Shown here piece after piece: positions 13,295 through 49,446 of a DNA stretch of 64,000 nucleotides. Position numbers and translations under genes: made by a program. The first letter of the stretch is position 1; each line of letters begins with the position of its first letter. This stretch comes from an uncultured Rhodospirillaceae bacterium (GTDB lineage Bacteria > Pseudomonadota > Alphaproteobacteria > GCA-2731375): the NCBI GenBank assembly GCA_964344935.1, contig CAYFPL010000013.1:27625-91624 (forward strand). Reading direction: 5' to 3'. The notes below the pieces were generated by a model. That model did not search any database. It was not told the DNA's origin and was given only the letters and a program-made list of their open reading frames with translations.

Positions 13295-14317
13295 ATGGCG
13301 GAAGACAGCGCATTCGACCCCCAGACCCTGAATCTGGAGACCGCGCGGGCCCGGCACCGGGAACTGGCGGATGCGGTGATTGCCACGCCTCTGGTGCGCC
13401 TGGCCTCCCCCGCCATCGGCCGGCTGCTGGAGAGCGAAGATATCTACCTGAAACTGGAATGTTTCCAGCACACCGGCACGTTCAAGGCCCGGGGCGCCCT
13501 GTCTGTGGCCCGCGCCATTCCCAGCAGCGATGCCGGCAAGGGCATCACCGCCGCATCCGCCGGCAACCATGCCATCGCCGCTGCCTGGGCGGCGCGGCAA
13601 CTGGGCATGAGCGCCAAGGTGGTGATGCAGGCCACCGCCAATCCGTTCCGGGTCGGCATGGCCCAGGCCGAAGGCGCCGAACTGATCATGAAGCCGGACG
13701 GCATGGCCGCCATTGGCGAGGCGGAGCGCCTGGCGCGAGACGAGGGGCGCACCTTCATCCATCCCTTCGAGGGCATCAACACCACCCTGGGTGCCGCCGG
13801 CGTGGGGCTGGAGATTATGGATGCCCAGCGGGACCTCGAGGCCGTGGTGGTCTCGGTCGGCGGCGGCGGTTTGATCAGCGGCGTGTCCGCCGGCGTCAAG
13901 CTGGTGAACCCTGACTGCGCCGTCTATGGCGTCGAACCGGTGGGCGCCGACAGCGTCTCCCGCAGCCTGGCCGCCGGCGAACCGGTGACCCTGGACAAAG
14001 TGGACACCATCGCCGACAGCCTGGGTCCCCCGATGTCCCTGCCCTATGGCCTGTCCGTCATCCGCGCCTTCGTGGACGATGTGGTGACCATCACCGACGA
14101 TCAGATCCTCGCCGGCCTCGTGGTCTGCCAGGAAGAGGGCAAGCTGGCCGTCGAACCCGCCGCCGGCGCCGCCATGGCCGCGGCCCTGGGCCCCTTGCGG
14201 GCGCGCCTTAGGGGCAAGCGCACCTGTATCCTGATCTGCGGCGCCAACATCGACGGCGAAACCTACACCGCCCAGCACCAACGCGGCCGGGCCCACGTGG
14301 CGGCGCTGATGGGATAG
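13295..14317 (+). CDS. Threonine/serine dehydratase (PLP fold-type II, catabolic-type, no ACT domain)
   Basis: LKLECFQHTGTFKARGA, SAGNHA and GGGGL motifs. The last ~25 codons (ICGANIDGETYTAQHQRGRAHVAALMG*) are the sequence copied in the downstream repeat array. Confidence 0.85.
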   Translation: MAEDSAFDPQTLNLETARARHRELADAVIATPLVRLASPAIGRLLESEDIYLKLECFQHTGTFKARGALSVARAIPSSDAGKGITAASAGNHAIAAAWAARQLGMSAKVVMQATANPFRVGMAQAEGAELIMKPDGMAAIGEAERLARDEGRTFIHPFEGINTTLGAAGVGLEIMDAQRDLEAVVVSVGGGGLISGVSAGVKLVNPDCAVYGVEPVGADSVSRSLAAGEPVTLDKVDTIADSLGPPMSLPYGLSVIRAFVDDVVTITDDQILAGLVVCQEEGKLAVEPAAGAAMAAALGPLRARLRGKRTCILICGANIDGETYTAQHQRGRAHVAALMG

Positions 14318-14400
14318 CGCCGCCCGGGTGTGGCAGCGCTGATCCGCATCGGCCCCGGATCTATTTCAGCCCAGCGGCCGACATTGTCCGCTTTGTGCTA
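14236..14400 (+). repeat. R0: native copy of the array repeat (3' ~80 nt of the dehydratase gene + ~85 nt downstream)
   Basis: Serves as the reference for the degenerate copies R1-R4. Confidence 0.8.
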
Positions 14401-15829: not shown

Positions 15830-15980
15830 AGGATGGCGCCCGGCACACCCGCGACTGGGCCCATGTCGCGGCGCTGATGGAATAGCGCGGGCGGGCGCAG
15901 GACTGCCGATCCGAATTGGAACAGGATCTATTTCAACCGAGCGGCCGCCCATGTCTGCTTCGTGCCACAAGCGGACATTA
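15829..15980 (+). repeat. R1: degenerate copy of the dehydratase 3' end and downstream region
   Basis: cacacccgcgactgggcccatgtcgcggcgctgatggaatag...ggatctatttcaaccgagcggccgcccatgtctgcttcgtgcc aligns with the native 14270-14400. Confidence 0.8.
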
Positions 15981-21780: not shown

Positions 21781-21934
21781 CGCCTACACCACCTTGCACG
21801 TCCGCGGCCGGGCCCATGTGGCGGCTTTGATGGGATAGGGGCAACAGGGTGTGGGATCGGCGATCTGTATTGGCGCCAGATCTGATTCAGCCGAGCAGGT
21901 GCCCACATCCGCGTTGTGCCAAGAGCGGACTGTC
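21781..21934 (+). repeat. R2: degenerate copy of the dehydratase 3' end and downstream region
   Basis: tacaccaccttgcacgtccgcggccgggcccatgtggcggctttgatgggatag...gatctgattcagccgagcaggtgcccacatccgcgttgtgccaagagcggact aligns to R0/R1. Confidence 0.8.
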
Positions 21935-27114: not shown

Positions 27115-27425
27115 AGTCATAAGCCTCTGAGGTCCGCTCTGGGTCAAATGCCGACGCACGTGGGCTCCAGAGATCATCATTCCCAGTGCGGCACTAACAG
27201 CTCAACGGGCTCCGAGAACCCTTTTTTCAGCGCCTCAGTGCCTGCGGCATCAACATCGACGGCGAAACCTACACCGCCCAGCACGAACGCGACCGGGCGC
27301 ACGTGGCCCGGCTGATGAGAAAGCGGCGGCAGGGTGTGGGACCGCCGATCCGTAAAACAGCCGATTATTTATCCGCCGAGCGACCGGATAAGAATGCCTG
27401 CATTGTGTCATGGGCGGACATTGCC
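27115..27425 (+). repeat. R3: long form of the array repeat (5' extension + a frameshifted copy of dehydratase codons + the downstream part)
   Basis: 27247-27300 ctgcggcatcaacatcgacggcgaaacctacaccgcccagcacgaacgcgaccgggcgcacgtgg is near-identical to native 14242-14300 with a 1-nt deletion. The downstream part aligns to R0-R2. Confidence 0.85.
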
Positions 27426-28182: not shown

Positions 28183-29952
28183 TTGCAGCGCGAGAATCGT
28201 AGACTGGCCGCCGTCGTTTCGGCTGATGTCGCTGGCTACAGCCGGCTCATGGGGCTTGATGAAACGGGTACGTTGCAGCGCCTGAAGGCGCACCGCGCCG
28301 AGTTGATCGATGATATGATCGGCCGGCACGGTGGCCGAATCGTCAAGACGACAGGTGATGGCCTATTGTCGGAGTTCCCCAGCGTCGTCGCCGCCGTCGA
28401 GTGCTGCCTCTCCGTGCAAGCGGGCATGGCCGAGCGTAATGCGGGTATCCCCGACAACGAGGCGATCCGCTTTCGCATCGGCGTGCATCTGGGCGACATC
28501 ATTGTTGATGGTGATGACATCTTCGGTGATGGTGTAAACATCGCGGCGCGCTTGCAGGAGATCGGCGAGGCAGGTGGTGTGACCGTGTCGGCGGTCGTAC
28601 ATGACTATCTGGATGAAGCCACCGCTGCCCGTTTCGTGGATCTGGGCGAACGGGAGTTAAAGAACATCCGTCGTGCGGTTCGAACCTGGCAATGGCGCCT
28701 GGCCGAAGCATCGCCCGTCAGCAGCGTTGATGTGTCGCAACAAGTAGCGGGTTTTGATGGCAGGCCCGCCATTGCGGTGCTGCCATTCGAGAACATGTCG
28801 GGCGATCCGGAACAGGAATACTTCGCCGATGGGATTGCCGACGACATCCTGACACGTCTTTCGATGTGGCGGTTGCTGCCTGTCATAGCGCGAAACTCAA
28901 GTTTCATTTTCAAGGGACGCAACGTCGACATTAAGGAAGTCGGCGAATTGCTGGGCGCGCGTTACGTGCTTGAAGGCAGCGTGCGCAGGGCCGGCGATCG
29001 ACTACGGATCTCGGCGCAACTCATCGATGCAGAAAGTAGCCATCACCTCTGGGCTGATCGCTTCGATGGGGCGGTCGATGATGTCTTCGAATTTCAGGAC
29101 GAGATCACCGATCTCGTGGTTGCCGCGCTGGAAGCTGTTGTCGGCAACGCGGAGCGGCAACGGGCTCGCAAACAAAATCCGAAAAACCTCGGTGCCTGGG
29201 AGCTCTGTCATCGCGGCTGCTGGCATTTGAACCGATTAAATAGGGATGACATTGTCGCCGCAGAGAAGTTGCTACAACAGGCCATCGATATAGAGCCGGA
29301 TTTCGGATACGCGCTCGGCCAATTGGCCCTGGCTAGTGTCTATAAGGTGTTTTTCGGCTGGACCGATGATGTCACCGCCGAACTGGAACTGGCCAAGGTG
29401 AAAGCTCAACAGGCACGGTCCGCAGACGAACTGGAACCGATTAGCCATACCATCCTGTCGTTTGTTCATATGTTTGCGGGCGAACACGCGGCTGCGCGCG
29501 TGGCGGCGCAAAAGGCCATCGACCTCAATCCCAGTCTGCCAATGGCTTACCATGCCATGGGCGCCGCTGTCGGTCTTGATGGAGATCCGGATGGCGGTAT
29601 CGAGCTGTTTATGCAGGGCCAAAGGCTTAGCCCGGACGATCCAAATGCACAATTCCGCCTTGGCGGCATCGCCGGACTGCATATCGCGGCAGGGCGCTAC
29701 GAACAGGCGCTGGAATATGCCGAGCGGGTAACCCAGATGGCGCCGGGCTTTCCCGTTGGGCATCTCAGAAAGGCCGTCGCCTTGGCCGAGTTGGGGCGCG
29801 GCGAGGACGCCGAAGCGGCGCTGGGGGAGTACTTGCGATTCTCGCCGAAGGCAACCGTTCAGTCGGCCCTGACGACGCTTCGGCTCAGTCGTGCCGAGGA
29901 TGTCGCGCGCTACGCCAATTCCCTGCGCAAGGCCGGCCTGCCCGAACAGTAG
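28183..29952 (+). CDS. Cyclase-TolB-like-TPR paralog 3
   Basis: RRLAAVVSADVAGYSRLMGLDETGT...VLPFENMSGDPEQEYFADG plus the TPR tail. TTG start. Confidence 0.8.
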   Translation: MQRENRRLAAVVSADVAGYSRLMGLDETGTLQRLKAHRAELIDDMIGRHGGRIVKTTGDGLLSEFPSVVAAVECCLSVQAGMAERNAGIPDNEAIRFRIGVHLGDIIVDGDDIFGDGVNIAARLQEIGEAGGVTVSAVVHDYLDEATAARFVDLGERELKNIRRAVRTWQWRLAEASPVSSVDVSQQVAGFDGRPAIAVLPFENMSGDPEQEYFADGIADDILTRLSMWRLLPVIARNSSFIFKGRNVDIKEVGELLGARYVLEGSVRRAGDRLRISAQLIDAESSHHLWADRFDGAVDDVFEFQDEITDLVVAALEAVVGNAERQRARKQNPKNLGAWELCHRGCWHLNRLNRDDIVAAEKLLQQAIDIEPDFGYALGQLALASVYKVFFGWTDDVTAELELAKVKAQQARSADELEPISHTILSFVHMFAGEHAAARVAAQKAIDLNPSLPMAYHAMGAAVGLDGDPDGGIELFMQGQRLSPDDPNAQFRLGGIAGLHIAAGRYEQALEYAERVTQMAPGFPVGHLRKAVALAELGRGEDAEAALGEYLRFSPKATVQSALTTLRLSRAEDVARYANSLRKAGLPEQ

Positions 29953-30050
29953 GTCATCGCACGAGGTCATCGAACGCAGCAGTAGCCGTGCGGCTTACGT
30001 ATTTGATATCTCAAACCACCGCCATTTTCGCTGACTAGCCCCCCGTTTCG

Positions 30051-30145
30051 ACGTCATCATCGACGTTGAAACCTATACTGCCCGGAACGCCCAGGGCCGG
30101 GCCCACGTGGCGGGGCGGATGGAATAGCGGTGTGACTTGCGACCG
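30051..30145 (+). repeat. R4: short degenerate copy of the dehydratase 3' end (last recognisable copy in the array)
   Basis: atcatcgacgttgaaacctatactgcccggaacgcccagggccgggcccacgtggcggggcggatggaatag aligns with native 14246-14317. Confidence 0.75.
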
Positions 30146-33858: not shown

Positions 33859-35187
33859 ATGAAGCGCGGCCCGAACAAACGCGCGCGTACCTGTTCTGGC
33901 GTCTTCATGGCGGCGGTATTGTGCACGCAATTGTTGTGGGGCACTCCCGTCTTTGCCGGGCAGAAGGGCGTGCGGCCAGAGGTACTTACGCTTGCCGAGA
34001 CGGCGGCGTTCCTGCGTGTGTCGGAAAACGAAATCGTAAGACTGGCCAGCTTGCGTCAACTGCCGGCCCGTAAAATTGGTGGTCAGTGGCGCTTTAGCCG
34101 GAGGGCTTTGCTGGGCTGGCTTGCCGGCAAGCCCATTTCAAGTGATGCCGGCGAAATCGAACGGCAAACCGTTGCAACGGCCCGTCCTGGCTATCCCCCG
34201 TTGTTGCCTCCCGGTTACCGCCAGCCAGTTGTCGGAGGGCGCAACAGGGAACAAATCGGCCAGGGGGCGCTGTTGACGAGTTCGCCTCAACTGGCACCCA
34301 TGGCCATGGCACAAATCAAAGGCCGTGGCACGGACGTGGCACAGGCCGCGCCGGCTTCGCGCGCACCGCCAAGCCAACCGATCGGCGAAGCCTCCAATGT
34401 AGAAACGGCAGATGACATATTTCTGCGCGATCAACGTGTGCTACTTGGTGCCGACGAAGTCACACTGGAATTCGGGCAGTTCTATGCCCACCGGGATGAA
34501 CCGACATTGACGCTGGTGGCCGGTGGCGTCGGGCTAGGGAGCCTTGAGACCGACACGTTCATCACCCAGATGGCTGCACGCTATGGGCTAACACCAAACG
34601 TCGAACTGTTCGCGAGCGTCCCGTTCTCGCACCGCACCACCAAGGTTTTCATTGGCAATTTAAAAACCAGCGAGACTGACGTTACTGAATTCGGGACAAT
34701 CAGTCTGGGCGCACGGGGGACCGTGTTGCGCGAGGGCACGGGGGTGCCGGAAATTGTGCTTACCCTACAATCCGGCATTCCGACGGGAGAGGCGTCCTAT
34801 TCCCTTGGCGGCGGCATGGCGCTGATCAAGAGCTACGACCCAGCCATTCTTTTCGCCGGTCTGAACTACACACATACCTTCAGTCGTGATTTTTCCGATG
34901 TAACCCGGCTGGAGCCGGAAGACACGGTCGATGGGTCCTTGGGATTTGCATTTGCCCTTAACGAAACATTGCTATTGAGCACTTCACTTTCGGGGATTAT
35001 CTCGGCGGCAACAGATTTCCCCGCGGCGAAATTGCGGCAGAGTGAATCCTTCAGCCTAAAGTTCGGACTGACCACACAATTGCTTCCGGGCCTCTACATC
35101 GAACCGACGGCGAGTTTCGGACTCGACGGTCCCGGCAATAGCTTCGTCCTTGGCGTCAGCGTCCCCTACAGCTTTCCCGTCAAATAG
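33859..35187 (+). CDS. Signal-peptide protein fusing an excisionase-family HTH (HTH_17-like) to a C-terminal outer-membrane beta-barrel-like domain
   Basis: LTLAETAAFLRVSENEIVRLASLRQLPARKIGGQWRFSRRALLGWL matches the HTH_17 consensus. The C-terminal ~250 aa have alternating hydrophobic beta-strand character and end in YSFPVK, typical of OM barrels. Confidence 0.5.
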   Translation: MKRGPNKRARTCSGVFMAAVLCTQLLWGTPVFAGQKGVRPEVLTLAETAAFLRVSENEIVRLASLRQLPARKIGGQWRFSRRALLGWLAGKPISSDAGEIERQTVATARPGYPPLLPPGYRQPVVGGRNREQIGQGALLTSSPQLAPMAMAQIKGRGTDVAQAAPASRAPPSQPIGEASNVETADDIFLRDQRVLLGADEVTLEFGQFYAHRDEPTLTLVAGGVGLGSLETDTFITQMAARYGLTPNVELFASVPFSHRTTKVFIGNLKTSETDVTEFGTISLGARGTVLREGTGVPEIVLTLQSGIPTGEASYSLGGGMALIKSYDPAILFAGLNYTHTFSRDFSDVTRLEPEDTVDGSLGFAFALNETLLLSTSLSGIISAATDFPAAKLRQSESFSLKFGLTTQLLPGLYIEPTASFGLDGPGNSFVLGVSVPYSFPVK

Positions 35188-38773: not shown

Positions 38774-38849
38774 TTTTGTGCGGAAAGAGACGCTGCCTTC
38801 TCCTGATCTTGAATGGATTTGCCGGGGAGCGATCGCTAATATTCATGCC

Positions 38850-40643
38850 ATGACTGACGGCACCAAACGCAAGCTGGCGGCGATCGTAAGCGCCGACGTG
38901 TCCGGTTATTCGCGCATGATGCAAGTTGACGAAGCCGGCACGCACCGCCGTCTCAAGGCCCGCTACGACGAGCTTGTCGCTCCGCAAATCGAACAGAAGG
39001 GCGGCCGCATCGTCAAGCTCATGGGCGACGGTTTGCTGGCCGAATTTCCCAGCGTGGTCAGCGCCGCGGAATGCGCATTGGAAGTTCAAATCGCCGCAGC
39101 CGCCGCCGATGCGAATGTAGATCCAGGGCGGCGCATCGAATACCGCATCGGTATCCACCTCGGCGACGTGATCGTTGATGGCGACGATATCTATGGCGAT
39201 GGCGTCAATCTGGCCGCCCGCTTGCAGGAATCCGGGGATGTGGGCGGCATCTCCCTGTCCGACGATGCTTATCGTCAGGTGCGCGGCAAGGTTGATGCTG
39301 CGTTCGTCGATGGCGGCGCGGTGTCTCTCAAGAACATCTCCGGCGATGTCCGCGTCTGGCGCTGGACGCTCGGATATGATGACGAGTCACTTCGTGGCGA
39401 GGGCATCGAAGCGGCGATTGGACCAGCGGCAACCCAGCCTCTTGCCGATAAACCTTCCCTCGCCGTGCTGCCCTTTGACAACCTTTCCGGTGATCCGGAA
39501 CAGGAATATTTCGCAGACGGGATGACGGAAGATATCATTACCGGCCTGTCTCGGTTTCGGTCGTTGTACGTGATCGCCCGCAACTCCACCTTTGCCTACA
39601 AGGGAAATTCGCCGGACGTTCGCCAGGTCGCCCGCGACTTAGGTGTTCGTTATATTCTCGAAGGCAGCGTTCGCCGGGGTGGCCAACGCATTCGCATCAA
39701 TGCGCAACTTATCGATGCCGAGGCCGGTGGTCACCAATGGGCCGAGCGTTATGATCGGGAGTTGGCCGACATATTCGCGGTTCAAGACGAGGTTACGGAA
39801 GCGATCATCGCCGCCATCGCGCCCGAAATCGACCAGGCGGAGCGCAACCGCGCACAACGCAAGCCGCCGGAAAGCTTGGATGCCTGGAGTCTGTACCAAC
39901 GTGGTCTTGCCGCCTATCACGCAACGACCAAGGACGGCTTCGAAACCGCGATCCAATTGTTCGACAGGGTTAACGACCTTGATCCCGGCTTCGCGCCGGC
40001 CTTCGCCATGGGCGCCGATGCCCGTACGCGCCTGACCATCCATTACATGCCCGGCGATACATCGCTGCTGCGCCAGGCCCAGGACAAGGCCGGCGTGGCG
40101 ACGACCCTTGATGCAAACGACGCGGATTGCTTATGGGTCGACGGGAAAGTGCAAAGCTTCCTAGGCTATCACGACGCCGCGGTCGCTAGGGGACAGGAGG
40201 CCATCACCCTCAATCCGAATTCCGCCATGGCGCATCAGGCCTTTGGTCTGATCCTGCAACGTGCGGGCCGCTCCGACGAAGCCATACGCCATATCACCCA
40301 GGCCATAGATCTAAGCCCTCGCGATTTGTTCTTGCCCGGCTTCTTGGCGCTCGGATCAAAGGCCTTGTATGACATCGGCCGCTTTCAGGATGCACTGAAT
40401 TGGGCGGGCCGCGCCAACCGTAGTCGCAATCCGCGGCCGCTGTCGTTTATCGTCGCCGCCGCCGCGTTGAGCGAACTTGGCGATCGGGATGCGGCGGTGG
40501 CTGTAGTTGCCGAGATGCTTGATCTCACGGGCCTCAAATCGGCACCGGAGCTTCGTGAGCTTCTGTTTTGGAACTGCCCCATGAGCCAAGAACGGAACGA
40601 ACAAACCATGGAGGCGTTGCGTCAGGCTGGCTTGCCAGACTAG
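38850..40643 (+). CDS. Cyclase-TolB-like-TPR paralog 4
   Basis: RKLAAIVSADVSGYSRMMQVDEAGT...VLPFDNLSGDPEQEYFADG plus the TPR tail. The start was set at the ATG at 38850. Confidence 0.8.
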   Translation: MTDGTKRKLAAIVSADVSGYSRMMQVDEAGTHRRLKARYDELVAPQIEQKGGRIVKLMGDGLLAEFPSVVSAAECALEVQIAAAAADANVDPGRRIEYRIGIHLGDVIVDGDDIYGDGVNLAARLQESGDVGGISLSDDAYRQVRGKVDAAFVDGGAVSLKNISGDVRVWRWTLGYDDESLRGEGIEAAIGPAATQPLADKPSLAVLPFDNLSGDPEQEYFADGMTEDIITGLSRFRSLYVIARNSTFAYKGNSPDVRQVARDLGVRYILEGSVRRGGQRIRINAQLIDAEAGGHQWAERYDRELADIFAVQDEVTEAIIAAIAPEIDQAERNRAQRKPPESLDAWSLYQRGLAAYHATTKDGFETAIQLFDRVNDLDPGFAPAFAMGADARTRLTIHYMPGDTSLLRQAQDKAGVATTLDANDADCLWVDGKVQSFLGYHDAAVARGQEAITLNPNSAMAHQAFGLILQRAGRSDEAIRHITQAIDLSPRDLFLPGFLALGSKALYDIGRFQDALNWAGRANRSRNPRPLSFIVAAAALSELGDRDAAVAVVAEMLDLTGLKSAPELRELLFWNCPMSQERNEQTMEALRQAGLPD

Positions 40644-40687
40644 CGGCGCCTTTCTGCAAGAGACGGTCCGGTCTGCTTCAACGAGTT

Positions 40688-41194
40688 ATGCCAACGGGGA
40701 TGCCGATGGATTGGAATGATGACCCGGCTTTGCCATCGCCGACGAAACGCATGCTGCTTTCCTGTTTCGGACTGACCGCGATGCTGCCGCTGCCCGGCCT
40801 GGCCCAGGCATCGAGTCTGGAGCGCCTGGTGGCGGCACCGATCCGGCAGCCGGCTGAAGGCACGGCGGCGGCCTATATCGCCCGCGCCTTCGAGATGCGC
40901 CAACTGGCCGTGGCGCACGGAGATCAGGCCTATGGGGCGGTCGTGGTCCGGGATGGCCGCATCATCGGGCAGTCGTGGAGCCGGGTGGTCATAGACAACG
41001 ATCCCACGGGCCACGCGGAAATGTCGGCGATCCGCGATGCCGCCCGGCGCAGCCACGGCGCCTTGGCCGGCGCGCAACTCTATTCCACCAGCATACCCTG
41101 CTCCATGTGTCAGGGTGCTGCCGCCTGGGTCGGCATCGCCGGTATGAGATATGGCCGTAACGGCACGGATGCCGGCCCGCCGCGTTCTTGTTGA
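40688..41194 (+). CDS. CDA-fold nucleoside/nucleotide deaminase (TadA/GuaD-like) with predicted N-terminal signal peptide
   Basis: HAEMSAIRDA and PCSMCQGA zinc-binding motifs. N-terminal TKRMLLSCFGLTAMLPLPGLAQA|S. The start is uncertain and overlaps the end of the preceding gene. Confidence 0.6.
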   Translation: MPTGMPMDWNDDPALPSPTKRMLLSCFGLTAMLPLPGLAQASSLERLVAAPIRQPAEGTAAAYIARAFEMRQLAVAHGDQAYGAVVVRDGRIIGQSWSRVVIDNDPTGHAEMSAIRDAARRSHGALAGAQLYSTSIPCSMCQGAAAWVGIAGMRYGRNGTDAGPPRSC

Positions 41195-41225
41195 TACTGG
41201 TGGGGAAACGCCTGCGAACGATATT

Positions 41226-42503
41226 CTAGGCTGCGGCGAGATGCACGCAGTTGCGGCCGCCGGCCTTGGCGAGATAAAGCGCCTCGTCTGCCCGATGTAA
41301 GGCAGCATCGATCGAATTGTCCGATTTCAGCCAGCTTGCGGCCCCGAAGCTGGCCGTGGCCGTGATCGTCTCGCCGGCATGGACGATTTGTGAAGCCGCC
41401 AGGGCCTCTCGCAGCCGCTCCGCCACTTGCACCGCCTCGTCGCAGCCGGTTTCCGGCATCAGGATGCCGAATTCCTCTCCGCCCAACCGGCCGAAACAGT
41501 CGAGGTTTTCCCGCAACTGGCCGCGGCCGATATCGGCAAAATGTTTTAACACTTCGTCTCCAGCCGCATGGCCCCAGCGATCATTGATGGACTTGAAATG
41601 ATCAAGGTCGCAAAGCACGAGGCTCATTTGACGGTTGTAACGCCGGTTGCGGGCAATTTCGATCTCGGCGACTTCGAGGAAGTGCCGCCGGTTGCTGAGG
41701 CCCGTCAGCGGGTCGGACAGGGCCATATGCGTCAACTCGGCTTCGAGTGATTTGCGCTCACTGATATCAAAACTGATACTGGCATAGCCGATCACCTCGC
41801 CGAAACGGTTGCGAAGGGGCGAAACGCGCAGATCAACATCGATGACCGTGCCGTCCTTGTGAACGCGCTGGGTTTCCCGCAAATGCGGTTTGCCGGTTGC
41901 CAAGATCGTTTGAGCCGCCTTGCCAACGGTGTTTCGCAAGTCGGCGGGTGCGAGAATTGTGTTGGGCTGGCCGATCAACTCGTCTTCCGAATAGCCATAA
42001 AGGACTTCTGCCGCCGGGTTGCAGCCTTGAATGACCAGATCGCGGTTCACAATAATGACCGCCACCGAAGTCGTTTCCAGGATTCGCCCGGAATCACGGG
42101 CAACTTGTTCGACGCGCCGTAGTTCGGTGACATCGATACCCGTCATAACACAGACCCTATTTCCTTCACCGCCACCCTGGCCACGAACGCCAGCGAACGA
42201 CCATGCCACGTTCGTGGCGGCGTCATCGGGCGATGAAATGCAGGTTTCAAGTGTTTCGTGCGGCTCGCAGGCGAATGCAGCCTCAATACCTGCTGACAGG
42301 CTGCGTCGGTATTCGTCAGAGAACAGTTCTGCGATGGGACGGCCCAGGGCGCCGTTCCTAGGGCGAGCGAAAATCTTCACCGCCGCGTCGTTAAAGGCGA
42401 TGATGTTCGTACTTTCGTCGACGGCGACAATACAGGTGCCTATCGCCTCGAAAATTTCTGCGACCGAGTCTTCCTTCATCGCGATACTCGCCGCCTGGTT
42501 CAT
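41226..42503 (-). CDS. PAS-PAS-GGDEF diguanylate cyclase
   Basis: GGEEF active-site motif (RLGGEEFGIL) and two PAS-like N-terminal modules. Confidence 0.85.
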   Translation of the reverse strand: MNQAASIAMKEDSVAEIFEAIGTCIVAVDESTNIIAFNDAAVKIFARPRNGALGRPIAELFSDEYRRSLSAGIEAAFACEPHETLETCISSPDDAATNVAWSFAGVRGQGGGEGNRVCVMTGIDVTELRRVEQVARDSGRILETTSVAVIIVNRDLVIQGCNPAAEVLYGYSEDELIGQPNTILAPADLRNTVGKAAQTILATGKPHLRETQRVHKDGTVIDVDLRVSPLRNRFGEVIGYASISFDISERKSLEAELTHMALSDPLTGLSNRRHFLEVAEIEIARNRRYNRQMSLVLCDLDHFKSINDRWGHAAGDEVLKHFADIGRGQLRENLDCFGRLGGEEFGILMPETGCDEAVQVAERLREALAASQIVHAGETITATASFGAASWLKSDNSIDAALHRADEALYLAKAGGRNCVHLAAA

Positions 42504-42578
42504 CTACTGCGGCAAATCGTAGTCAAATTATGTAAAGAAAATATTCACAGGCTTGGCCGGGAAAGGAGAGTAAAGACC

Positions 42579-42887
42579 ATGAAAAACATACCCTTGAACG
42601 TTGCGGCCGTCGTTCGGGCTGCCGTCGTCGGCATTCCGATTGCACTTTCCGGCCCGGCGATGGCCGATGGCGTTGACCGGGGGCAGTTCCGCGCCCTCGA
42701 AACACGGGTCAAGCAGCTGGAGCGCCACGTCCGCAGCCTGGATCGAAAGGCGGTCAGGGGCCGGGGCACCGGCGTACTGGCCGACGAGATCAACCGGCTG
42801 GCCCAGCAGAATGCCGCCCTGTGGAACAAGATCGCCGAACTGGAAGCACAGCTCAAAGTTCTGCGGTCCGAACTGCATTCCCATTAG
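42579..42887 (+). CDS. Small exported coiled-coil protein (102 aa)
   Basis: Signal peptide MKNIPLNVAAVVRAAVVGIPIALSGPAMA, then heptad-like LETRVKQLERHVRSLD...LEAQLKVLRSEL. Its 3' 165 nt are duplicated at 46393-46560. Confidence 0.45.
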   Translation: MKNIPLNVAAVVRAAVVGIPIALSGPAMADGVDRGQFRALETRVKQLERHVRSLDRKAVRGRGTGVLADEINRLAQQNAALWNKIAELEAQLKVLRSELHSH

Positions 42888-42890
42888 AAG
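42724..42890 (+). repeat. DR-left: 3' end of the coiled-coil gene, one copy of a ~165-bp direct repeat
   Basis: Aligns with 46393-46560 at roughly 80% identity, ending at the shared cattcccattag. Confidence 0.8.
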
Positions 42891-42914
42891 ACGTAAGGTC
42901 TCCTAATCCTCGAG

Positions 42915-43664
42915 CTAATGCCAAGTGCGGATGATCCGTGTGAACAGGGCGACAATAGCCAACGAAAACACAAGCGTGGGTCCCGTGGGCAGGTCCGCGA
43001 TCATTGACATTCCCAGGCCCAGGATGATGCCGGTCATTGCCAACGCGATGGCCCAGACGGGACGAGCCGGTTGCATTTCGTTCACGGCCAGGGCCGGCAG
43101 GATTAAACTGGCAAAGACCACGTAAACCCCGACGAGTTGCACGGAAGCGGTGACGATAATGCCAAACAGCAGGAAGAACGCGAGACCGTGTCGGACAAGT
43201 GGCACCAGGAACCACAACAACGTCCCGACAAGGTAGACGGGGGCAAAGGACAACACCGTCCGCCAATCCGCGAACAGGACTTGCCCTACCAGGACATGTT
43301 GGATTTCCTCGCCCCCATGCGGTTGGTCTGCGAGTACGAGCAACATGGCGGAAGCGGCGACGATGAAAGTGGCGCCGATCACCGCTTCCTGTTCCCGCGG
43401 CATCGCCTTTTCGACCCATCGGAAATAGAGTGCCGCGCAAACGGCCGAGAACAGGGCGGCCAACTGAACCACCGCCCACGGTGGTTCGTGCAATAAGAGG
43501 TTCGCCAGCACGACATAGAGGCCGGCAATTTGCGCAATGGCAAGATCGATGAAGACGATGCCACGGCGCAGGACCTCCATGCCCAAAGGCGCGTGCAACA
43601 CAGCAATCATGAGCCCGACCGCGAGCGCCGGGCCCATGATCTCGATGTAATTATTGCCTGGCAT
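42915..43664 (-). CDS. znuB: Metal (Zn/Mn) ABC transporter permease, ABC-3/ZnuB family
   Basis: Polytopic membrane protein with the ABC-3 family pattern (GIVFIDLAIAQIAGL...). The start was moved to MPGNNYIEIMGP. Confidence 0.7.
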   Translation of the reverse strand: MPGNNYIEIMGPALAVGLMIAVLHAPLGMEVLRRGIVFIDLAIAQIAGLYVVLANLLLHEPPWAVVQLAALFSAVCAALYFRWVEKAMPREQEAVIGATFIVAASAMLLVLADQPHGGEEIQHVLVGQVLFADWRTVLSFAPVYLVGTLLWFLVPLVRHGLAFFLLFGIIVTASVQLVGVYVVFASLILPALAVNEMQPARPVWAIALAMTGIILGLGMSMIADLPTGPTLVFSLAIVALFTRIIRTWH

Positions 43665-44577
43665 GCGAGACGGACTGGACGGTAACGAGCTGATTGATGA
43701 TCTCGTCAAACATAGTCCGCAACGCGCCTGGGGCGGCATCTTTGGTGACCGTGTAGGGCGGCACCAACACGGCGATGCCCGTCTTGTCCGACAACCATTT
43801 TGCCGCGTCCGGGGGATCATAGGGAGTCCGCAAGATCGCTGCGGCAGGTCGCGATTTCATCGAGCTCAACAGTCTATTCAGATGTGCCGGTGTCGGGGGA
43901 ATGCCGGGCCTCGCTTCCAGGGTGGCGACCTCATTCAATCCCAGCCAATTGACAAGGTAGGACCAGGTCTTGTGGTGCACGACGACCGGCATGCCTTTCA
44001 ACGGTCTCGCCTTCGCCCGCCAATCCGACAACGCCTCTTGCCAGCTTCGTATGAAGCGATCGGCGCCCTTGCGATAGGTGCTTGCGTTTGCACTGTCGAT
44101 GCGGCTTAGACGTTCGGCGACTTCCCTCGCCAAAGGGGCAATGTTTCGCGCGTCGAGATGGACATGCGGATTGCCTTCGGGATGGATATCGCCGAGGCTG
44201 CGATCCACAACCCTGGGCTTTTCCAACACGGTTACGTGGTCGACCGCCATAAGATAGCCGGATTGGCCGGGCTGAACGCGCGCCGGGGCGCCGCGTTGCA
44301 GAAGGATGGGCAGCCAACCGATCTCCAGACCACCGCCTGAACAGAAGAGCAAGTCGGCTTGCCGTATGCGGGCAATCAGGCTCGGTCGCGCCCGAATGTA
44401 GTGGGGATCCTGACGGTCACTGGTAGCGGAGAACACGGATACCTTATCGCCGCCCACTTCACGGGCCAATGCCGCCCATTCCGGTTCGCAGGCAAAGACC
44501 TTCACGTCGGCTGCGGCCGGGGTGGGCAAAACCCACCCCGGTGCAATCAACAGGAACAATAGGAACACGCCCCTCAT
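43651..44577 (-). CDS. znuA: Metal ABC transporter substrate-binding protein, ZnuA/TroA family
   Basis: Signal peptide, DIHPEGNPHVHLD metal-coordinating His cluster and two-lobed TroA-like pattern. Confidence 0.7.
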   Translation of the reverse strand: MRGVFLLFLLIAPGWVLPTPAAADVKVFACEPEWAALAREVGGDKVSVFSATSDRQDPHYIRARPSLIARIRQADLLFCSGGGLEIGWLPILLQRGAPARVQPGQSGYLMAVDHVTVLEKPRVVDRSLGDIHPEGNPHVHLDARNIAPLAREVAERLSRIDSANASTYRKGADRFIRSWQEALSDWRAKARPLKGMPVVVHHKTWSYLVNWLGLNEVATLEARPGIPPTPAHLNRLLSSMKSRPAAAILRTPYDPPDAAKWLSDKTGIAVLVPPYTVTKDAAPGALRTMFDEIINQLVTVQSVSHARQ

Positions 44578-44587
44578 AATGCGCTGC

Positions 44588-45916
44588 TCAAAAGGCATGG
44601 GCACCATGGGCGCCGATGCTCATGACGTATTGCAGGATAAGCTGATTATCATCAGCGCCGGAGGATAGCTCCTCCCTGTTATACTGCAGACGAATGCGGC
44701 CGAACTCGCTGCTCGTCCAATCGCCCATGACCGAAATGGTATGCGGATCGTGGCCGGCCGGATCGAGGGCACTGCCCACCAGACCTGCCGGTGCGGCTTC
44801 CGAATCCATCTGGGAATAGCGTGCGCCAATGCGCCAACTGGGGGCAAATTTGTAGACGCCTTGCACGTACCAGCCTCGTGTCGTGTCATCGACGGTGACC
44901 CGACCGGTGCCTGCGTCTGCATCCTCATAGGTGCCATCCTCATTACGCTGGAATAGCTCGGCCTGCAAAATCAGTTCGCTCTGTTTTGCATCCCCCGTCG
45001 GTGCCATCGTATAACGCAAATCAGCGGCATAGAGGCGCGATTCGCCAATGAACGTCACCATGTCTTCGTTGGACTTGCGATCCGTGGCATCGCTGTCCAG
45101 ATAATAGCCGCCTATGCGCCAGCTTTGATTGTCGCCGATATCACCGCCAATTCGCGCGAATGCCGACCAGGCACCCAAGCCGCGAACCGAGCCGCCGGCG
45201 GGGAAATCCTCGGCCCGGAAGGCGCCACCGCCGAACTCGGTATAGAGATCCGTCGGCAATACGTACGACAATTCCACGCCGTCGTCGTTGAACGCCTTGT
45301 TGAGATAGACCCTGTAGGGCAACGGCCGATCGGCGAAGTCGTCCGCATGGGCGTGATGCTCGTTCAAATATCCCAATGTCCAGAACTTGCGCCCGAAGGT
45401 CGCGCGGGCGCCCTCAGGCAACCCGACGCCGGGTAGGGTCTGGGCGTAGGCCTCTTCAAGCTCGACCTTGTCTTCGCCGTCCTCGCGGACGATCGCCGCC
45501 GTCAGGCTGCCGAAAAACTTATCGTCCACATTGGCCGAGAAGTTGAGCTCGGATTCATCGATCGCCAAGCCCTCCCGGCCGCGCTCGCCTTCTTCGCCAA
45601 CGCCAAAGCCGGCGATTTCCGAGGCGTTGCGCGAGAACGACGAAGCCTTGCCGTTCAGGATAACCCCGATAGCTGGATTAAAGCTGTTGCCGAATATGGC
45701 TCTTTTACCGGAAGCAGGCGCGGACGCCGCCTCGGTCTGCTTTGCATCACCCATGGTTTTGAGTTTTGCTTCAAGTTGAGAGATCCGCGCCTCGTAGTCT
45801 TTCTTGAGGGCCTGGATCTCCTTAAGGATCGCCTCTGTGTCCTGTGCGTAAACAGGGGTGGCGTGCCAAGCGGACACGGCCAAAGCCGCCGCCAGGCAGC
45901 GAATTAGCTTCTTCAT
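44588..45916 (-). CDS. Outer-membrane porin-like beta-barrel protein (signal peptide, N-terminal coiled-coil, C-terminal Phe)
   Basis: MKKLIRCLAAALAVSAWHATPVYAQD signal peptide, alternating beta-strand pattern, and a terminal ...GAHAF. Confidence 0.5.
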   Translation of the reverse strand: MKKLIRCLAAALAVSAWHATPVYAQDTEAILKEIQALKKDYEARISQLEAKLKTMGDAKQTEAASAPASGKRAIFGNSFNPAIGVILNGKASSFSRNASEIAGFGVGEEGERGREGLAIDESELNFSANVDDKFFGSLTAAIVREDGEDKVELEEAYAQTLPGVGLPEGARATFGRKFWTLGYLNEHHAHADDFADRPLPYRVYLNKAFNDDGVELSYVLPTDLYTEFGGGAFRAEDFPAGGSVRGLGAWSAFARIGGDIGDNQSWRIGGYYLDSDATDRKSNEDMVTFIGESRLYAADLRYTMAPTGDAKQSELILQAELFQRNEDGTYEDADAGTGRVTVDDTTRGWYVQGVYKFAPSWRIGARYSQMDSEAAPAGLVGSALDPAGHDPHTISVMGDWTSSEFGRIRLQYNREELSSGADDNQLILQYVMSIGAHGAHAF

Positions 45917-45964
45917 CGTATGTCTCCTGATTTAATAGGTTTGCCGCCACGATGGCGGAAATGC

Positions 45965-46285
45965 TCAAGTCAGGAGGGTTGGCGGGCCGCGAATACATCG
46001 CCGATCACCGACGGCGCGGCCCGTGAGACATACGTGCGTTGGGTTGCATAAAGTGACCCTGACAAGGCGCGGCGCCCCAATTGCCGCGAGAGTAGGCGGG
46101 CTCAGTTCCTTTGCCGCCTCGGCGAGAAACTGAATGGCACAAGGGGTGCCATCATGTTCGTGGGGATCCGCGCCGAATTCCGCTGCATGCACGGTTGCAT
46201 GCACTTGGCCGAGCAGGAAAAGCAGCGCCACGAACCATCGCCAGCGCACCTGCCGTCGGTCACCGCTGCGGCGATGGCTATACAT
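45965..46285 (-). CDS. Small hypothetical exported His/Asp-containing protein
   Basis: MYSHRRSGDRRQVRWRWFVALLFLLGQVHATVHA|AEFGADPHEHDG. Weak call; it is the first gene downstream of the Zur-box-like palindrome. Confidence 0.25.
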   Translation of the reverse strand: MYSHRRSGDRRQVRWRWFVALLFLLGQVHATVHAAEFGADPHEHDGTPCAIQFLAEAAKELSPPTLAAIGAPRLVRVTLCNPTHVCLTGRAVGDRRCIRGPPTLLT

Positions 46286-46326
46286 CCGCTTTCTGCCGTC
46301 CCCGATTTCGTAGTTAATCAGTTTTG

Positions 46327-46342
46327 TTATGTTATAACATAA
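46327..46342. promoter_or_regulatory. Perfect 16-bp palindrome TTATGTTATAACATAA, a Zur-box-like operator candidate
   Basis: Read directly, about 45 bp upstream of the leftward operon. The ATGTTATAACAT core resembles Zur-box operators of proteobacterial znu operons. Confidence 0.45.
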
Positions 46343-46392
46343 GTTTTTGTTGCGATGTCCAGTGCATTCTCGGGCAGGAATCGTCATCGGAG

Positions 46393-46560
46393 CTGCCCGC
46401 CGCCACATCCGCAACCTGGATCGAAAGGCGAACAGGGGCCGGGGCACGGGCGTACTGGCTGACGAGATCACCCGGCTGGCACAGCAAAACGCGGCCCTGT
46501 GGAAGCGGACATTGGAACAGGAGGAGCAGTTCTAAGTTCATTTTGTCCGAACAGCATTCC
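46393..46560 (+). repeat. DR-right: degenerate second copy of the 3' end of the coiled-coil gene
   Basis: ctggatcgaaaggcgaacaggggccggggcacgggcgtactggctgacgagatcacccggctggcacagcaaaacgcggccctgtggaag...cattcccattag aligns with 42724-42890. Confidence 0.8.
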
Positions 46561-46639
46561 CATTAGGTGATGTCGTTGCAGACTTTTGAGAAATTCCGGA
46601 GCGTTGAACCTGTGTCATCAGGCGATTAGGGTCTCCATC

Positions 46640-47698
46640 ATGGAACAGATACCTGAAACCATGCGCGGCGTTTGGCTCACCGGGCATGGGGGCCCTGAGA
46701 AACTTTCCATCCGCGATGACATCCCCGTCCCCCGCCCGGGCCCAAGGGAGGTTCTCGTTCGCGTGGCCGCCGCGGCCCTCAACAATACCGACATAAATAC
46801 GCGAACCGCTTGGTATTCGAAGAGCGACGGCGCCAGTGAGGATGGGAGCTGGTCCGGGTCGGCCATAAAATTTCCAAGAATTCAGGGCGCCGATGTTTGT
46901 GGACGCATCGTCTCCGTCGGGGCGGCGGTCAACCAAGACCGGATCGGCGAGCGCATACTGATAGAGCCGTGTATTCGGGAGGCTGATGGGAAAACACTGG
47001 AGCAGCCCTGGTATTTCGGATCGGAATGTGATGGCGGATTCTCTGACTACACGGTTGTTGCCGCCCGCCACGCATACAAAATCGAAAGCGGCTTGAGCGA
47101 TGTCGAACTGGCCTCGTTTCCATGTTCCTATTCGACGGCGGAAAACCTGCTTGAAAGATCAAACACAGGGACCGACGACAGGGTGCTTGTCACCGGCGCG
47201 TCGGGCGGCGTGGGCTCCGCGGTCGTTCAATTGGCCCAGGCCCGTAAGGCACGGGTTTTCGCCGTAACCAGCCAATCGAAATCCGACGACGTATTGCGCC
47301 TTGGCGCGGAACAAACGTTCGCCCGCGAGGACAGCCTTGTCGAGGTGATCGGCGGCAATACCATCGACGTCGTGATTGACCTGGTCGGTGGGGCACAATG
47401 GCCGCAGCTTCTCGACATCCTTCGCCCGGGCGGTCGTTACGCCGTGGCCGGCGCGATCGGCGGGCATAGTGTCGAATTGGACCTCAGGACTCTTTATCTA
47501 AAGGACTTGAACTTGATTGGATGTACGGTTTTGGAGCCTGACGTATTTGCGAACTTAATCCGCCGTATTGAAGGCGGGCAGGTATCACCCATCGTTGCCC
47601 TGACTTTTCCGCTTGACGGGATTCTTGATGCGCAGGCTGCATTCGCCACGAAGAACCATACAGGGAAAATAGTTCTTACCGTCGATGAAAGGCGTTAG
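46640..47698 (+). CDS. Zinc-binding alcohol dehydrogenase / MDR-family oxidoreductase
   Basis: MRGVWLTGHGGPEKL...VLVTGASGGVGSAVVQLA. Start at MEQIPET. Confidence 0.75.
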   Translation: MEQIPETMRGVWLTGHGGPEKLSIRDDIPVPRPGPREVLVRVAAAALNNTDINTRTAWYSKSDGASEDGSWSGSAIKFPRIQGADVCGRIVSVGAAVNQDRIGERILIEPCIREADGKTLEQPWYFGSECDGGFSDYTVVAARHAYKIESGLSDVELASFPCSYSTAENLLERSNTGTDDRVLVTGASGGVGSAVVQLAQARKARVFAVTSQSKSDDVLRLGAEQTFAREDSLVEVIGGNTIDVVIDLVGGAQWPQLLDILRPGGRYAVAGAIGGHSVELDLRTLYLKDLNLIGCTVLEPDVFANLIRRIEGGQVSPIVALTFPLDGILDAQAAFATKNHTGKIVLTVDERR

Positions 47699-47775
47699 CG
47701 GAAGTGCGCTAGGCCAAGCGACACAAGACCCTCCTATCGACGTTTGCCGGAACGCCCCGGCAATGAAGATCAAGT

Positions 47776-49446
47776 ATGAAAGGATCAAATATGGCCACCC
47801 CGACAGATCTTGAAAGTGCGGGTTGCGCCGCTTGCGCGGCCACGGCGTCCGCCGATCCCAGGACCGCCGGTGACATCGTCGCGGCCGCCAGCCCGGGCGA
47901 GGAGATGCCGGCATTGCGCACGGGCGGTGGCAAGGCGATCCCGGCGCAATCTCCGAAACTCAATGGCGACCAAGGACCCTTCAGCCGTCTGGTCATTCGC
48001 GGCGCGACGGTAATTGACGGTACCGGTGCGCCGCCCATTGGGCCCATCGACGTCGTGATCGAGAATGACCGCATCATGGAGGTGCGGAGCGTCGGCTTTC
48101 CCGGTCTGCCCATCACCGCCCCGCGCCCCGAGGCGGGCGATCGGGAAATCGATGCCCATGGAAAATATGTGCTGCCCGGATTTGTGGATGCCCATGTCCA
48201 CATCGGCTATCCGATGCAAAGCAGCCATGGCCCCTTGGCGCCAAGCGAGTACGTCTACAAACTGTGGCTAGCTCATGGCGTTACCACAGTGCGCGAAGTG
48301 GGCTGCCTGAACGGACTGGCCTGGACATTGGAGCAGCGGCGCCAAAGCCAAGCGGGCGAAATCGCGGCGCCTGATATCGTCTGCTACGCCATGTTCCCGT
48401 TGCCTGAATTCACCGACAGATCACCCGAGACGGCCCGGGCCTGGGTCAACCATGTGGCGGAGGCGGGCGCCCAGGGCGTCAAATTCATGGGCGCTGATCC
48501 CGAACCTATGGCGGCGGCCCTGGATGAGGCACGCAAACTTGGCCTCAAGACCGCCTGCCATCATGCGCAAATGTCCGTCGCGCGCATGAATGTGCTGGAT
48601 ACCGCCGGCTGGGGCCTGACCAGCATGGAGCATTGGTATGGCCTGCCCGAGGCCCTGTTCGAGGATCGCACCGTGCAGGACTATCCCGCCGGCTACAACT
48701 ACAACAACGAGCAGGACCGTTTTGGCGAGGCCGGCCGGCTTTGGCTGCAGGCGGCGGAACCGGGCAGCGCCCGCTGGCGGGAGGTGATGGACCGACTGTT
48801 GGAATTGGATTTCACCATCGTGCCGACTTTCGTGGCCTATGAAGCCACCCGGGATGAAATGCGCGCGCGGCGGATGGAATGGCATGATGAATATACGTGG
48901 CCTGGGGTCTGGGACTTTTTCCAGCCCAATCGCGCTGCACATGGATCGTTCTGGTTTTATTGGACCACCCAGCACGAGATCGCCTGGCGGCGGAATTATC
49001 AACGCTGGATGATGTTCATCAATGAATACAAGAACCGGGGCGGCCGGGTCTGCGCTGGCAGCGATTCCGGCTTTATCTACAACCTCTATGGCTATGGCTT
49101 TATCCGCGAGATGGAGTTGCTGCAGGAAGCGGGCTTCCATCCCCTCGAAGCGCTCCGCTCGGCGAGCTTGCGATCAGCCGAACTGTTGGGCGTGGATGGC
49201 GAAACCGGCTCGGTGCAGGCCGGCAAGCGCGCCGACCTGGTCATTCTGGATGAAAACCCCCTGGAGAATACCAAAGCACTCTATGGCACCGGTGCGGTAA
49301 AACTGAACGACGAGACCAGGCTGGCGGATCGGGTCGGCGGCGTGCGTCATACCATCAAAGGCGGCGTCGTACATGACGCCAAGCAAATGCTGAGCGAGGT
49401 GCGGGCCATCGTCGAAGAAGAGAAGGCAAGGCGCGCGGCTGAATAG
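47776..49446 (+). CDS. Amidohydrolase-family metal-dependent hydrolase
   Basis: LPGFVDAHVHIG is the HxH metal-binding motif, and GSDSG comes late in the barrel. Confidence 0.7.
   Translation: MKGSNMATPTDLESAGCAACAATASADPRTAGDIVAAASPGEEMPALRTGGGKAIPAQSPKLNGDQGPFSRLVIRGATVIDGTGAPPIGPIDVVIENDRIMEVRSVGFPGLPITAPRPEAGDREIDAHGKYVLPGFVDAHVHIGYPMQSSHGPLAPSEYVYKLWLAHGVTTVREVGCLNGLAWTLEQRRQSQAGEIAAPDIVCYAMFPLPEFTDRSPETARAWVNHVAEAGAQGVKFMGADPEPMAAALDEARKLGLKTACHHAQMSVARMNVLDTAGWGLTSMEHWYGLPEALFEDRTVQDYPAGYNYNNEQDRFGEAGRLWLQAAEPGSARWREVMDRLLELDFTIVPTFVAYEATRDEMRARRMEWHDEYTWPGVWDFFQPNRAAHGSFWFYWTTQHEIAWRRNYQRWMMFINEYKNRGGRVCAGSDSGFIYNLYGYGFIREMELLQEAGFHPLEALRSASLRSAELLGVDGETGSVQAGKRADLVILDENPLENTKALYGTGAVKLNDETRLADRVGGVRHTIKGGVVHDAKQMLSEVRAIVEEEKARRAAE

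Follow-up and report, generated by a model that had tools for sequence, protein, structure and literature searches.

An omr-znuAII-znuBII-type operon without an ABC ATPase, bracketed by a duplicated gene end in an uncultured Rhodospirillaceae bacterium

Introduction

The closest described counterpart of the locus studied here is omr-znuAII-znuBII of Vibrio parahaemolyticus (VP_RS21430-21420, with orthologues in the Harveyi clade). The Zur-regulon table of this species, which lists no ATPase, gives 1033-, 543- and 283-fold derepression of omr, znuAII and znuBII, respectively, in a zur mutant (PMC9817125). ZnuAII (Vpa1307) was described in 2013 as a 'novel subfamily of ZnuA'. It is induced when zinc is limiting, adds to growth in zinc-depleted conditions and requires H69, H148 and H202; it was present in about 40% of clinical isolates and was judged to be horizontally acquired (PMC3794297). 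The present analysis concerns an operon of this type in a stretch of 64,000 nucleotides (the window) from an uncultured Rhodospirillaceae bacterium (contig CAYFPL010000013.1, positions 27,625 to 91,624, assembly GCA_964344935.1). The operon lies between a gene for a small exported coiled-coil protein (the cc gene) and an alcohol dehydrogenase-family (ADH) gene, and it is bracketed by a direct repeat of the 3' end of the cc gene.

By its gene order and conserved residues, the window operon is a member of the known but mis-annotated omr-znuAII-znuBII type with two extra features. Both have the order outer-membrane protein, ZnuA-subfamily protein and permease with no ATPase, and they have in common the upstream Zur boxes, the ZnuA-family histidines, a 19-residue gap in the permease and the C-terminus of the porin (GAHGAHAF in Vibrio). 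Only the window operon has an extra first gene, encoding a small His/Cys protein, and an N-terminal periplasmic coiled coil on the porin. By tblastn, these three genes were also located on the second V. campbellii chromosome, again with no ATPase and with the same gap at the coupling helix; gene order, annotation labels and clade, rather than a direct sequence comparison, are the basis for equating the V. campbellii and V. parahaemolyticus loci. With ZnuABC of Escherichia coli, the window operon shares a binding protein of cluster A-I with a histidine site, an ABC-3 permease with the equivalent of Asp36 and putative Zur repression. It differs from ZnuABC in having no ZnuC, in a dedicated porin within the operon and in the permease changes described below.

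Absence of an ABC ATPase and loss of the coupling helix

All open reading frames (ORFs) of at least 120 aa in the window were searched with an iterated profile hidden Markov model (HMM) of ATP-binding cassette (ABC) ATPases, and about 55 ORFs were searched against Pfam. No ABC ATPase was found in the 64 kb by either search. A preliminary description of this DNA had reported that no znuC-type gene is present in the window, which these scans bore out, and the interval between the repeats held none either. A scan of reference genomes with the porin gave 76 loci from Alpha-, Beta- and Gammaproteobacteria, Thermodesulfobacteriota/Dadabacteria, Nitrospinales, Pelagibacterales and others, and gene order was counted in the 72 loci whose contig extended far enough. 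The order porin, binding protein and permease (the module) was present in 72/72 loci, and the profile search found no ABC ATPase within 10 kb in 64 of them. A directly adjacent ATPase was present at a single locus (L077, 13001-13654) and was of the LolD/DevA/MacB type, not ZnuC. No ZnuC-type ATPase was found at the module in any of the 72 loci or in the Vibrio locus.

The permeases were analysed by sequence alignment and hydropathy, with 71 family permeases set against E. coli ZnuB. Cryo-electron microscopy of ZnuBC showed that a cytosolic extension of transmembrane helix 5 (TM5) leads into coupling helix alpha2 (154-162), the main contact with ZnuC, and that Asp36 and His40 of ZnuB are important for zinc uptake (PMC12236471). 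A gap of 19 residues after TM5, in the cytoplasmic loop, was present in more than 80% of the 71 permeases and in every lineage representative aligned, including Vibrio. This gap corresponded to ZnuB residues about 144-165 and covered the coupling helix, so that essentially all of alpha2 (SPDLAFVDG in the 9oko sequence) was removed; hydropathy left about 6 residues in the TM5-TM6 loop of the family. The equivalent of ZnuB Asp36 was kept, the His40 position was occupied by Ala or Gln and the FGD motif had changed to xGQ. The window permease differed from that of ZnuABC in the same way, with both alpha2 and the cytosolic extension of TM5 lost.

The preliminary description had also considered the loss of part of the operon by deletion between the repeats. 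The window would then hold a crippled ZnuABC operon from which znuC had been lost, and the only observation in favour of this is the local absence of an ATPase gene. Since none of the 72 loci nor the Vibrio locus has a ZnuC-type ATPase at this same gene order, and the coupling helix is lost across the family, the absence is a family trait and the deletion of znuC is refuted. In addition, the Vibrio counterpart is functional in zinc acquisition, and a crippled operon can be practically discounted.

It is tentatively proposed that the ZnuBII permeases are membrane domains of ABC importers that have turned ATP-independent, and that the module is a widespread and so far unrecognised zinc importer which depends on a binding protein, is not powered by an ABC ATPase and has its own metal-selective porin. 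Two considerations weigh against this proposal: a distant, unlinked ATPase may dock with ZnuBII in a non-canonical way, and ATP-independent transport is something we infer from sequence. Binding proteins that feed a membrane component unpowered by an ABC ATPase are known from the tripartite ATP-independent periplasmic (TRAP) transporters and the tripartite tricarboxylate transporters (TTT). The resemblance to these would be functional; their membrane proteins are unrelated in sequence and fold to the window permease, which, unlike them, derives from an ABC type II importer permease.

Under zinc starvation, Zur would leave its box and the operon would be derepressed. Zinc would pass the outer membrane through the His-rich porin and would be captured by the three-histidine ZnuAII-type protein, with the small His/Cys protein possibly acting as a relay. 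The binding protein would then pass zinc to the ZnuB-derived permease, which would work without an ABC ATPase. Uptake would be facilitated or ion-coupled and gated by the binding protein, and the very low free zinc of the cytoplasm would be the driving force.

No published account of the absent ATPase or of the lost coupling helix in this cluster was found, including in the two Vibrio studies (PMC9817125, PMC3794297). In public annotation, the module appears as an ordinary ABC transporter together with a 'hypothetical' or 'TonB-dependent' outer-membrane protein. It is nevertheless frequent among marine bacteria: the porin has more than 2,400 homologues, among them those of Pelagibacterales, Rhodospirillaceae and Harveyi-clade Vibrio. 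The evidence that a whole ZnuB-like family may have dispensed with the ABC ATPase is the most interesting outcome of the analysis. If the permease works without an ATPase, it would be, to our knowledge, the first membrane domain of an ABC type II importer to have become binding-protein-dependent and ATP-independent. Such a module would bear on zinc acquisition by oligotrophs at picomolar concentrations, and Vibrio offers a genetically tractable host for testing ATP independence.

LolD/MacB-type ATPases that were not ZnuC-like were observed near the module at L004 (317-2283), L020, L023, L031, L040 and L077, and those of L020, L023, L031 and L040 lay 0.8-2.5 kb upstream. By Pfam, locus L004 additionally encoded a MacB_PCD/FtsX permease; at L043, the first ORF upstream of the porin was FtsX-like by eye. 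These genes resemble the Zur-regulated ZrgBC/PA4064-4065 type of system.

Proteins encoded by the operon

The interval between the repeats (42895-46400) consists of exactly one minus-strand operon with its Zur box. Past the stop codon of the permease gene it continues for 20 nt, and ahead of the first start codon for 115 nt, operator included. The features are listed in Table 1.

Table 1. Coordinates of the operon, the repeat copies and the flanking genes in the window.
Feature	Position	Strand	Description
PLP-enzyme gene-end copies	14236-14400, 15837-15965, 21783-21896, 27242-27352, 30049-30129		window self-comparison
PAS-GGDEF diguanylate cyclase gene	41226-42503	-	Pfam; left flank, divergent from cc
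cc gene	42579-42887	+	intact; 102-aa exported coiled-coil protein ending HSH; ribosome-binding site; signal-peptide-like N-terminus
Left repeat copy	42723-42894	+	cc codons 49-102, stop codon and 7 nt beyond
ZnuBII-type permease gene	42915-43664	-	249 aa; Pfam ABC-3 (PF00950), E=1.4e-15, 57.9 bits against a cutoff of 20.1
ZnuAII-type periplasmic zinc-binding protein gene	43651-44607	-	318 aa; Pfam ZnuA, E=1.3e-40
Outer-membrane porin gene	44588-45916	-	442 aa; signal peptide, periplasmic helix at residues 23-64, predicted 16-strand barrel
Small membrane-anchored His/Cys protein gene	45965-46285	-	106 aa; motif H-AE-x-G...HEH-x-G..C, C-terminal R(A/G)PP
Zur box	46326-46343	.	cTTATGTTATAACATAAc (perfect palindrome TTATGTTATAACATAA); 42 nt upstream of the start codon of the small gene
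Right repeat copy	46401-46573	+	5'-truncated, decaying cc fragment; abuts the ADH gene
Zn-dependent alcohol dehydrogenase-family (ADH) gene	46604-47698	+	Pfam; right flank of the insert

The permease was a distant relative of E. coli ZnuB (9oko, E=3.9e-4). The closest solved relative of the ZnuAII-type protein was AdcAII (3cx3), and its zinc-site histidines aligned with those of AdcAII and ZnuA. At Vpa1307 numbering, it has His69 and His148, and the third histidine is His212, which aligned with a histidine of the V. campbellii orthologue (41.6% identity). The porin had no match in Pfam or NCBIfam. Its AlphaFold2 model (pLDDT 73, pTM 0.71) showed a periplasmic helix and a 16-strand barrel, and the Foldseek matches of the model were OmpF/OmpC/OprP/DcaP/AlgE. 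The barrel was like those of the trimeric 16-strand porins OprP/OprO, OmpF/OmpC and DcaP (Foldseek TM 0.5-0.65) and the N-terminal periplasmic helix was like the N-terminal coiled coil of DcaP, whereas identity to these porins was 9-13%, with no detectable sequence similarity. A NEHHAHADDFADRP loop and a GAHGAH-F C-terminus were invariant among the homologues, and the invariant His/Asp-rich loop and C-terminal GAHGAH motif suggest that the porin is selective for metal.

The legacy label of omr as a TonB-dependent receptor, which the V. parahaemolyticus Zur-regulon table also uses (PMC9817125), was rejected. The proteins have 380-442 aa, a 16-strand porin fold and no plug, compared to 22 strands and about 700 aa or more in TonB-dependent receptors. 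The same label on the V. campbellii porin (L173, 5929-7071) and its protein cluster is a misannotation by size and 16-strand fold. The Vibrio version of the porin has extra His-rich loops (EDHDHGHADEHGHDHSHG, GHAHGDHMH).

Homologues of the small His/Cys protein precede the porin in most loci. Two members of this family reached 15-16 bits with DUF2946 (PF11162), below the cutoff of 23.7 (E=0.02-0.04), and the window protein was unmatched. Scans of the region for sigma-70 promoters and terminators gave nothing above shuffled expectation, and neither the region nor the window as a whole had a riboswitch or any further Rfam RNA.

Zur control

The Zur box of the window operon occurred once in the window, with 0 expected by chance. 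Its central 14 nt were equal to the Zur-box consensus of the Rhodobacter group, GATATGTTATAACATATC (PMC2706843), and a near-identical site in the hlyII promoter of uropathogenic E. coli was the probe in a Zur-binding electrophoretic mobility shift assay (PMC5916954). Zur-type boxes were found upstream of the module at about a dozen loci of closer alphaproteobacterial relatives, against a background of 0.03 per kb. The V. campbellii module had two canonical Zur boxes at most 70 nt upstream. A broad scan for Zur half-sites gave 6/72 reference loci compared to about 0.6 expected. Zur-like genes of the Fur family lay directly upstream of the porin in L031 and L037, and the L031 regulator matched best as Zur (NF008646, E=1.6e-30) compared to 5e-7 for Fur. 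The window operon would be repressed by Zur. A point against the proposed working is that detection of a Zur-type operator was confined to Vibrio and the closer alphaproteobacterial loci and did not extend to all phyla; Zur control is therefore claimed only for these two groups.

In two marine contigs (L006, 8500-15462; L007, 240-7235), a cobalamin/cobalt cluster enclosed the module, with cobW-cobN on one side and cbtB/cbtA on the other. The small gene was missing there, and a compact Zur-type box (GGAATGTTATAACATTTC) preceded the porin gene by 60 nt. Judging from this placement, the module may be linked to COG0523/CobW-type metallochaperones, or cobalt may be an alternative substrate.

The direct repeat

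Comparison of the window with itself aligned 42723-42887 with 46401-46566 at 82.7% identity over 168 columns (blastn E=8.2e-35), and this was the sole second copy of the cc 3' end in the 64 kb. With its flanks, the homology extended over about 42714/42723-42894 and 46388/46401-46573. A repeat finder split the repeat into 139 nt at 82% and 29 nt at 86%, with a 1-nt indel between them. The preliminary description had stated that the last 165 nt of the coiled-coil gene recur in degenerate form beyond an insert with genes for a small exported protein, a porin-like outer-membrane protein, znuA and znuB on the minus strand. Its repeat was confirmed by the alignment, with a similarity far above background, and its gene content by the ORFs, Pfam and the structure model; what the duplicated gene end brackets is one self-contained operon.

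In the right copy, the first 48 codons of cc are gone, a premature TAA and a +1 indel are present and the terminal CATTCCCATTAG is retained. Identity between the copies was approximately 91% over the first 100 nt, 55-74% over the next approximately 40 nt and 21/22 around the stop codon. Within the first 35 codons, the differences in the cc frame fell 2/3/7 on codon positions 1/2/3 (dN/dS 0.33), while the two other frames showed the opposite pattern. The periodicity of GC by codon position persisted in the right copy. The heptad pattern of the sole cc homologue was kept in the left copy and not in the right copy. Overall, this suggests that the right copy is a piece of once-coding cc sequence, which would have diverged while coding and then decayed.

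The window derives from a metagenome assembly, and the repeat has about the size of the template repeat of a diversity-generating retroelement (DGR), so an artefact or another kind of repeat was considered. The left junction was reproduced in an independent per-sample assembly (L001, 100% identity over 39726-43763) and the right junction in another (L171, 99.96% identity over 44238-49048); since both junctions are present in independent assemblies, there is no assembly chimera. A DGR template/variable pair was rejected: the 29 mismatches lay at A in 10/29 cases in the right copy and 8/29 in the left copy, mismatches in each copy involved all four bases, and the window yielded no reverse transcriptase. 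An integron attC site or an element like the repetitive extragenic palindromic (REP) sequences was rejected as well, as the structured imperfect inverted repeat was absent and folding of the repeat copies showed no excess structure over shuffled controls (z = -0.3 and -0.9). Explanations of this class are taken together to be exceedingly improbable.

The cc gene itself had a GC content by codon position of 0.73/0.42/0.76, which resembles that of the neighbouring genes. A word-indexed search of 5.8 billion proteins returned only the self-match. Exhaustive HMMER search gave one credible homologue (P0242, 92 aa, 37% identity over the full length, E=1.2e-8), and the only contig with it (L172, Logan SRR12149292 contig, 2671 bp) had the order gltX, cc-like gene and comEC. 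No cc-like genes were found on plasmids or phages, and neither cc-like nor other recurrent small genes were found 3' of the permease in relatives. Homology of cc to the N-terminal coiled coil of the porin was ruled out (BLASTP E=31).

Origin of the insert

The 3.5-kb operon probably arrived by insertion as a cassette. Insertion is favoured because the repeats bracket one unit and this unit is portable: the neighbourhood of the module differed in each relative whose surroundings were examined, a tblastn search with 16 window flanking proteins found none of them linked to the module in any locus retrieved, and the Vibrio counterpart varies between strains and was judged horizontally acquired. 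An intact gene, an insert and a displaced 3' end in the same orientation have the geometry expected when an incoming, diverged 3' end recombines with the gene; we infer the direction of the event and the mechanism of insertion. The operon would have entered between cc and ADH by recombination within the cc 3' end. The incoming DNA would have brought a diverged cc 3' end, which would leave cc intact and place a second, 5'-truncated and decaying copy at the far end of the insert. Candidate mechanisms, none of which is chosen firmly, may be a single crossover of a circle with a homeologous anchor, a one-ended homology-facilitated illegitimate recombination, or a recombinase acting in trans.

Several observations weigh against an insertion. 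No unoccupied cc-ADH junction was found in the searched public data, and no relative had cc beside an ADH orthologue; the empty site was not found because the cc gene is nearly unique. In about 55 window ORFs there was no integrase, transposase or other recombinase, and the window held no tRNA or tmRNA. The insert had no GC anomaly (0.57-0.62 inside and outside), and GC by codon position was alike. Divergence between the copies is non-uniform and concentrated in the block of approximately 40 nt, which the insertion model leaves unexplained. The longest identical run between the copies is now 16 bases, a poor RecA substrate unless the copies were once more alike. Finally, the third-position bias of the differences rests on n=12 (p about 0.07).

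The surroundings of relatives were compared from both flanks. The ADH orthologue of a sister lineage (L165/L166, 86% identity) was preceded by a gamma-glutamyltranspeptidase gene and had no module beside it; DNA homology with L165/L166 was confined to the ADH gene (46603-47694). ADH orthologues at 86% and 75% identity had unrelated neighbours. When the flanking GGDEF protein was used to scan metagenomes, nothing closer than distant paralogues (at most 53% identity) was recovered.

A local duplication, the main rival reading, would reverse the order of events. The operon would then be resident, and the ancestral cc gene would have stood on the right, divergent from the Zur-box promoter, and would have been copied to the left; the old copy would have lost its 5' half and decayed. 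The right fragment does lie directly beside the Zur box and promoter region, as a divergent gene would, traces of coding constraint are present in both copies, and the lack of a recombinase and of any compositional sign of foreign DNA is consistent with such a history. However, it needs two events: approximately 400 bp would have been duplicated to a site 3.6 kb away, and a deletion at the 5' end would have left the adjacent operator untouched. A single insertion explains both boundaries. The module is also portable, and no relative had a cc-like gene beside it. A local duplication is thus considered rather unlikely.

Some elements are known to enter the 3' ends of protein-coding genes and to carry a replacement end, such as e14 and phage 21 in icd of E. 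coli, and integrative and conjugative elements (ICE) and cis-mobilizable elements (CIME) at fda and comparable sites. As in the window, a direct repeat of the gene 3' end is formed, the gene stays intact and the displaced copy at the far end is free to decay. The window insert differs from these elements in having no integrase or excisionase and no phage or conjugation genes, in carrying a single operon of housekeeping type as cargo and in the absence of a recognised identical core. It could be a recombinase-less, CIME-like element integrated site-specifically by a recombinase in trans, with its attachment site in the cc 3' end, and the serial insertions at the pyridoxal phosphate (PLP)-dependent enzyme gene described below would be of the same kind. 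The geometry is that of islands which enter a gene 3' end with a replacement end and leave the displaced end to decay downstream, and the five tandem gene-end copies at the second window locus are like a tandem accretion at a single attachment site. The 12 nt of CATTCCCATTAG (His-Ser-His-stop) were identical at 42876-42887, out of frame at 46555-46566 and in the 37%-identical homologue at L172 1090-1101; identical codon choice by chance is roughly 1/72 or less, and CATTCCCATTAG may be conserved as a site in the DNA and not solely as a motif of the protein. Against this stand the absence of any tyrosine or serine recombinase in the 64 kb, the absence (by eye only) of an evident motif common to the two repeat families, and the repeat copies themselves, which have no special secondary structure and no definable identical core. 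Integration by a recombinase in trans is viewed as quite improbable. The preliminary description had read the locus as a possible integration event; the insertion of a portable unit within repeats agrees with this, and site-specific integration is unproven, with no integrase, transposase, tRNA or compositional anomaly to point to it.

Other gene-end duplications

A second gene end in the window is repeated. The last approximately 80 nt of the PLP-dependent enzyme gene (13295-14317), with about 90 nt downstream, occurred in five copies at 77-86% identity, and the downstream part of approximately 90 nt held a hairpin (ATGTCCGC-N12-GCGGACAT). Each copy follows a block of one or more inserted plus-strand genes. 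The inserted blocks included adenylate cyclases (MASE7 or TPR), a methyl-accepting chemotaxis protein, a hybrid histidine kinase, DUF1194, a short-chain dehydrogenase/reductase and a glyoxalase, and no recombinase was found among the genes of this array. The array looks like a serial insertion at one gene end. The preliminary description had likened the operon repeat to this locus, which it called a dehydratase array; the likeness holds at the level of the signature, with one gene 3' end present five times around inserts, and the two loci may have a mechanism in common.

In the contig L172, the cc-like gene (823-1101) was itself bracketed by an 81-nt direct repeat with 84% identity (722-802 and 1210-1290). 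The downstream copy was the genuine upstream region and 5' end of comEC, and the upstream copy was a decayed duplicate. Judged from this repeat, the cc-like gene of L172 is an inserted cassette of about 488 bp.

Overall, gene-end duplications of 80-170 nt with 77-86% identity around inserted genes were found in three cases (cc, the PLP enzyme and L172), with no recombinase nearby. A recurrent, recombinase-poor insertion process that duplicates 80-170 nt of a gene end is possible. The duplication that flanks the operon is less important alone; together with the PLP-enzyme and L172 cases, it would point to the addition of single operons in a way that leaves no recombinase behind.

Neighbouring genes

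The cc and permease genes converge, and their stop codons are 27 nt apart, an unusually short spacing for two genes that terminate independently. The spacer (42883-42907) held a weak hairpin (TTAGAAGAC-GTAAG-GTCTCCTAA, z=-1.4) with no T-run.

Elsewhere in the window, a gene at 33859-35187 encoded a 442-aa protein whose sole recognisable domain was an N-terminal HTH_17 (excisionase/MerR-like). It adjoins genes for a C39 peptidase-domain protein and a methyltransferase, and it was the sole window match with a flavour of mobile elements. Finally, four paralogous adenylate/guanylate cyclase-TPR genes were identified (18230-19960, 22073-24295, 28183-29952 and 38778-40643), and short DNA similarity among them was present between 18775-18869 and 28764-28857 and between 28774-28835 and 39462-39523.

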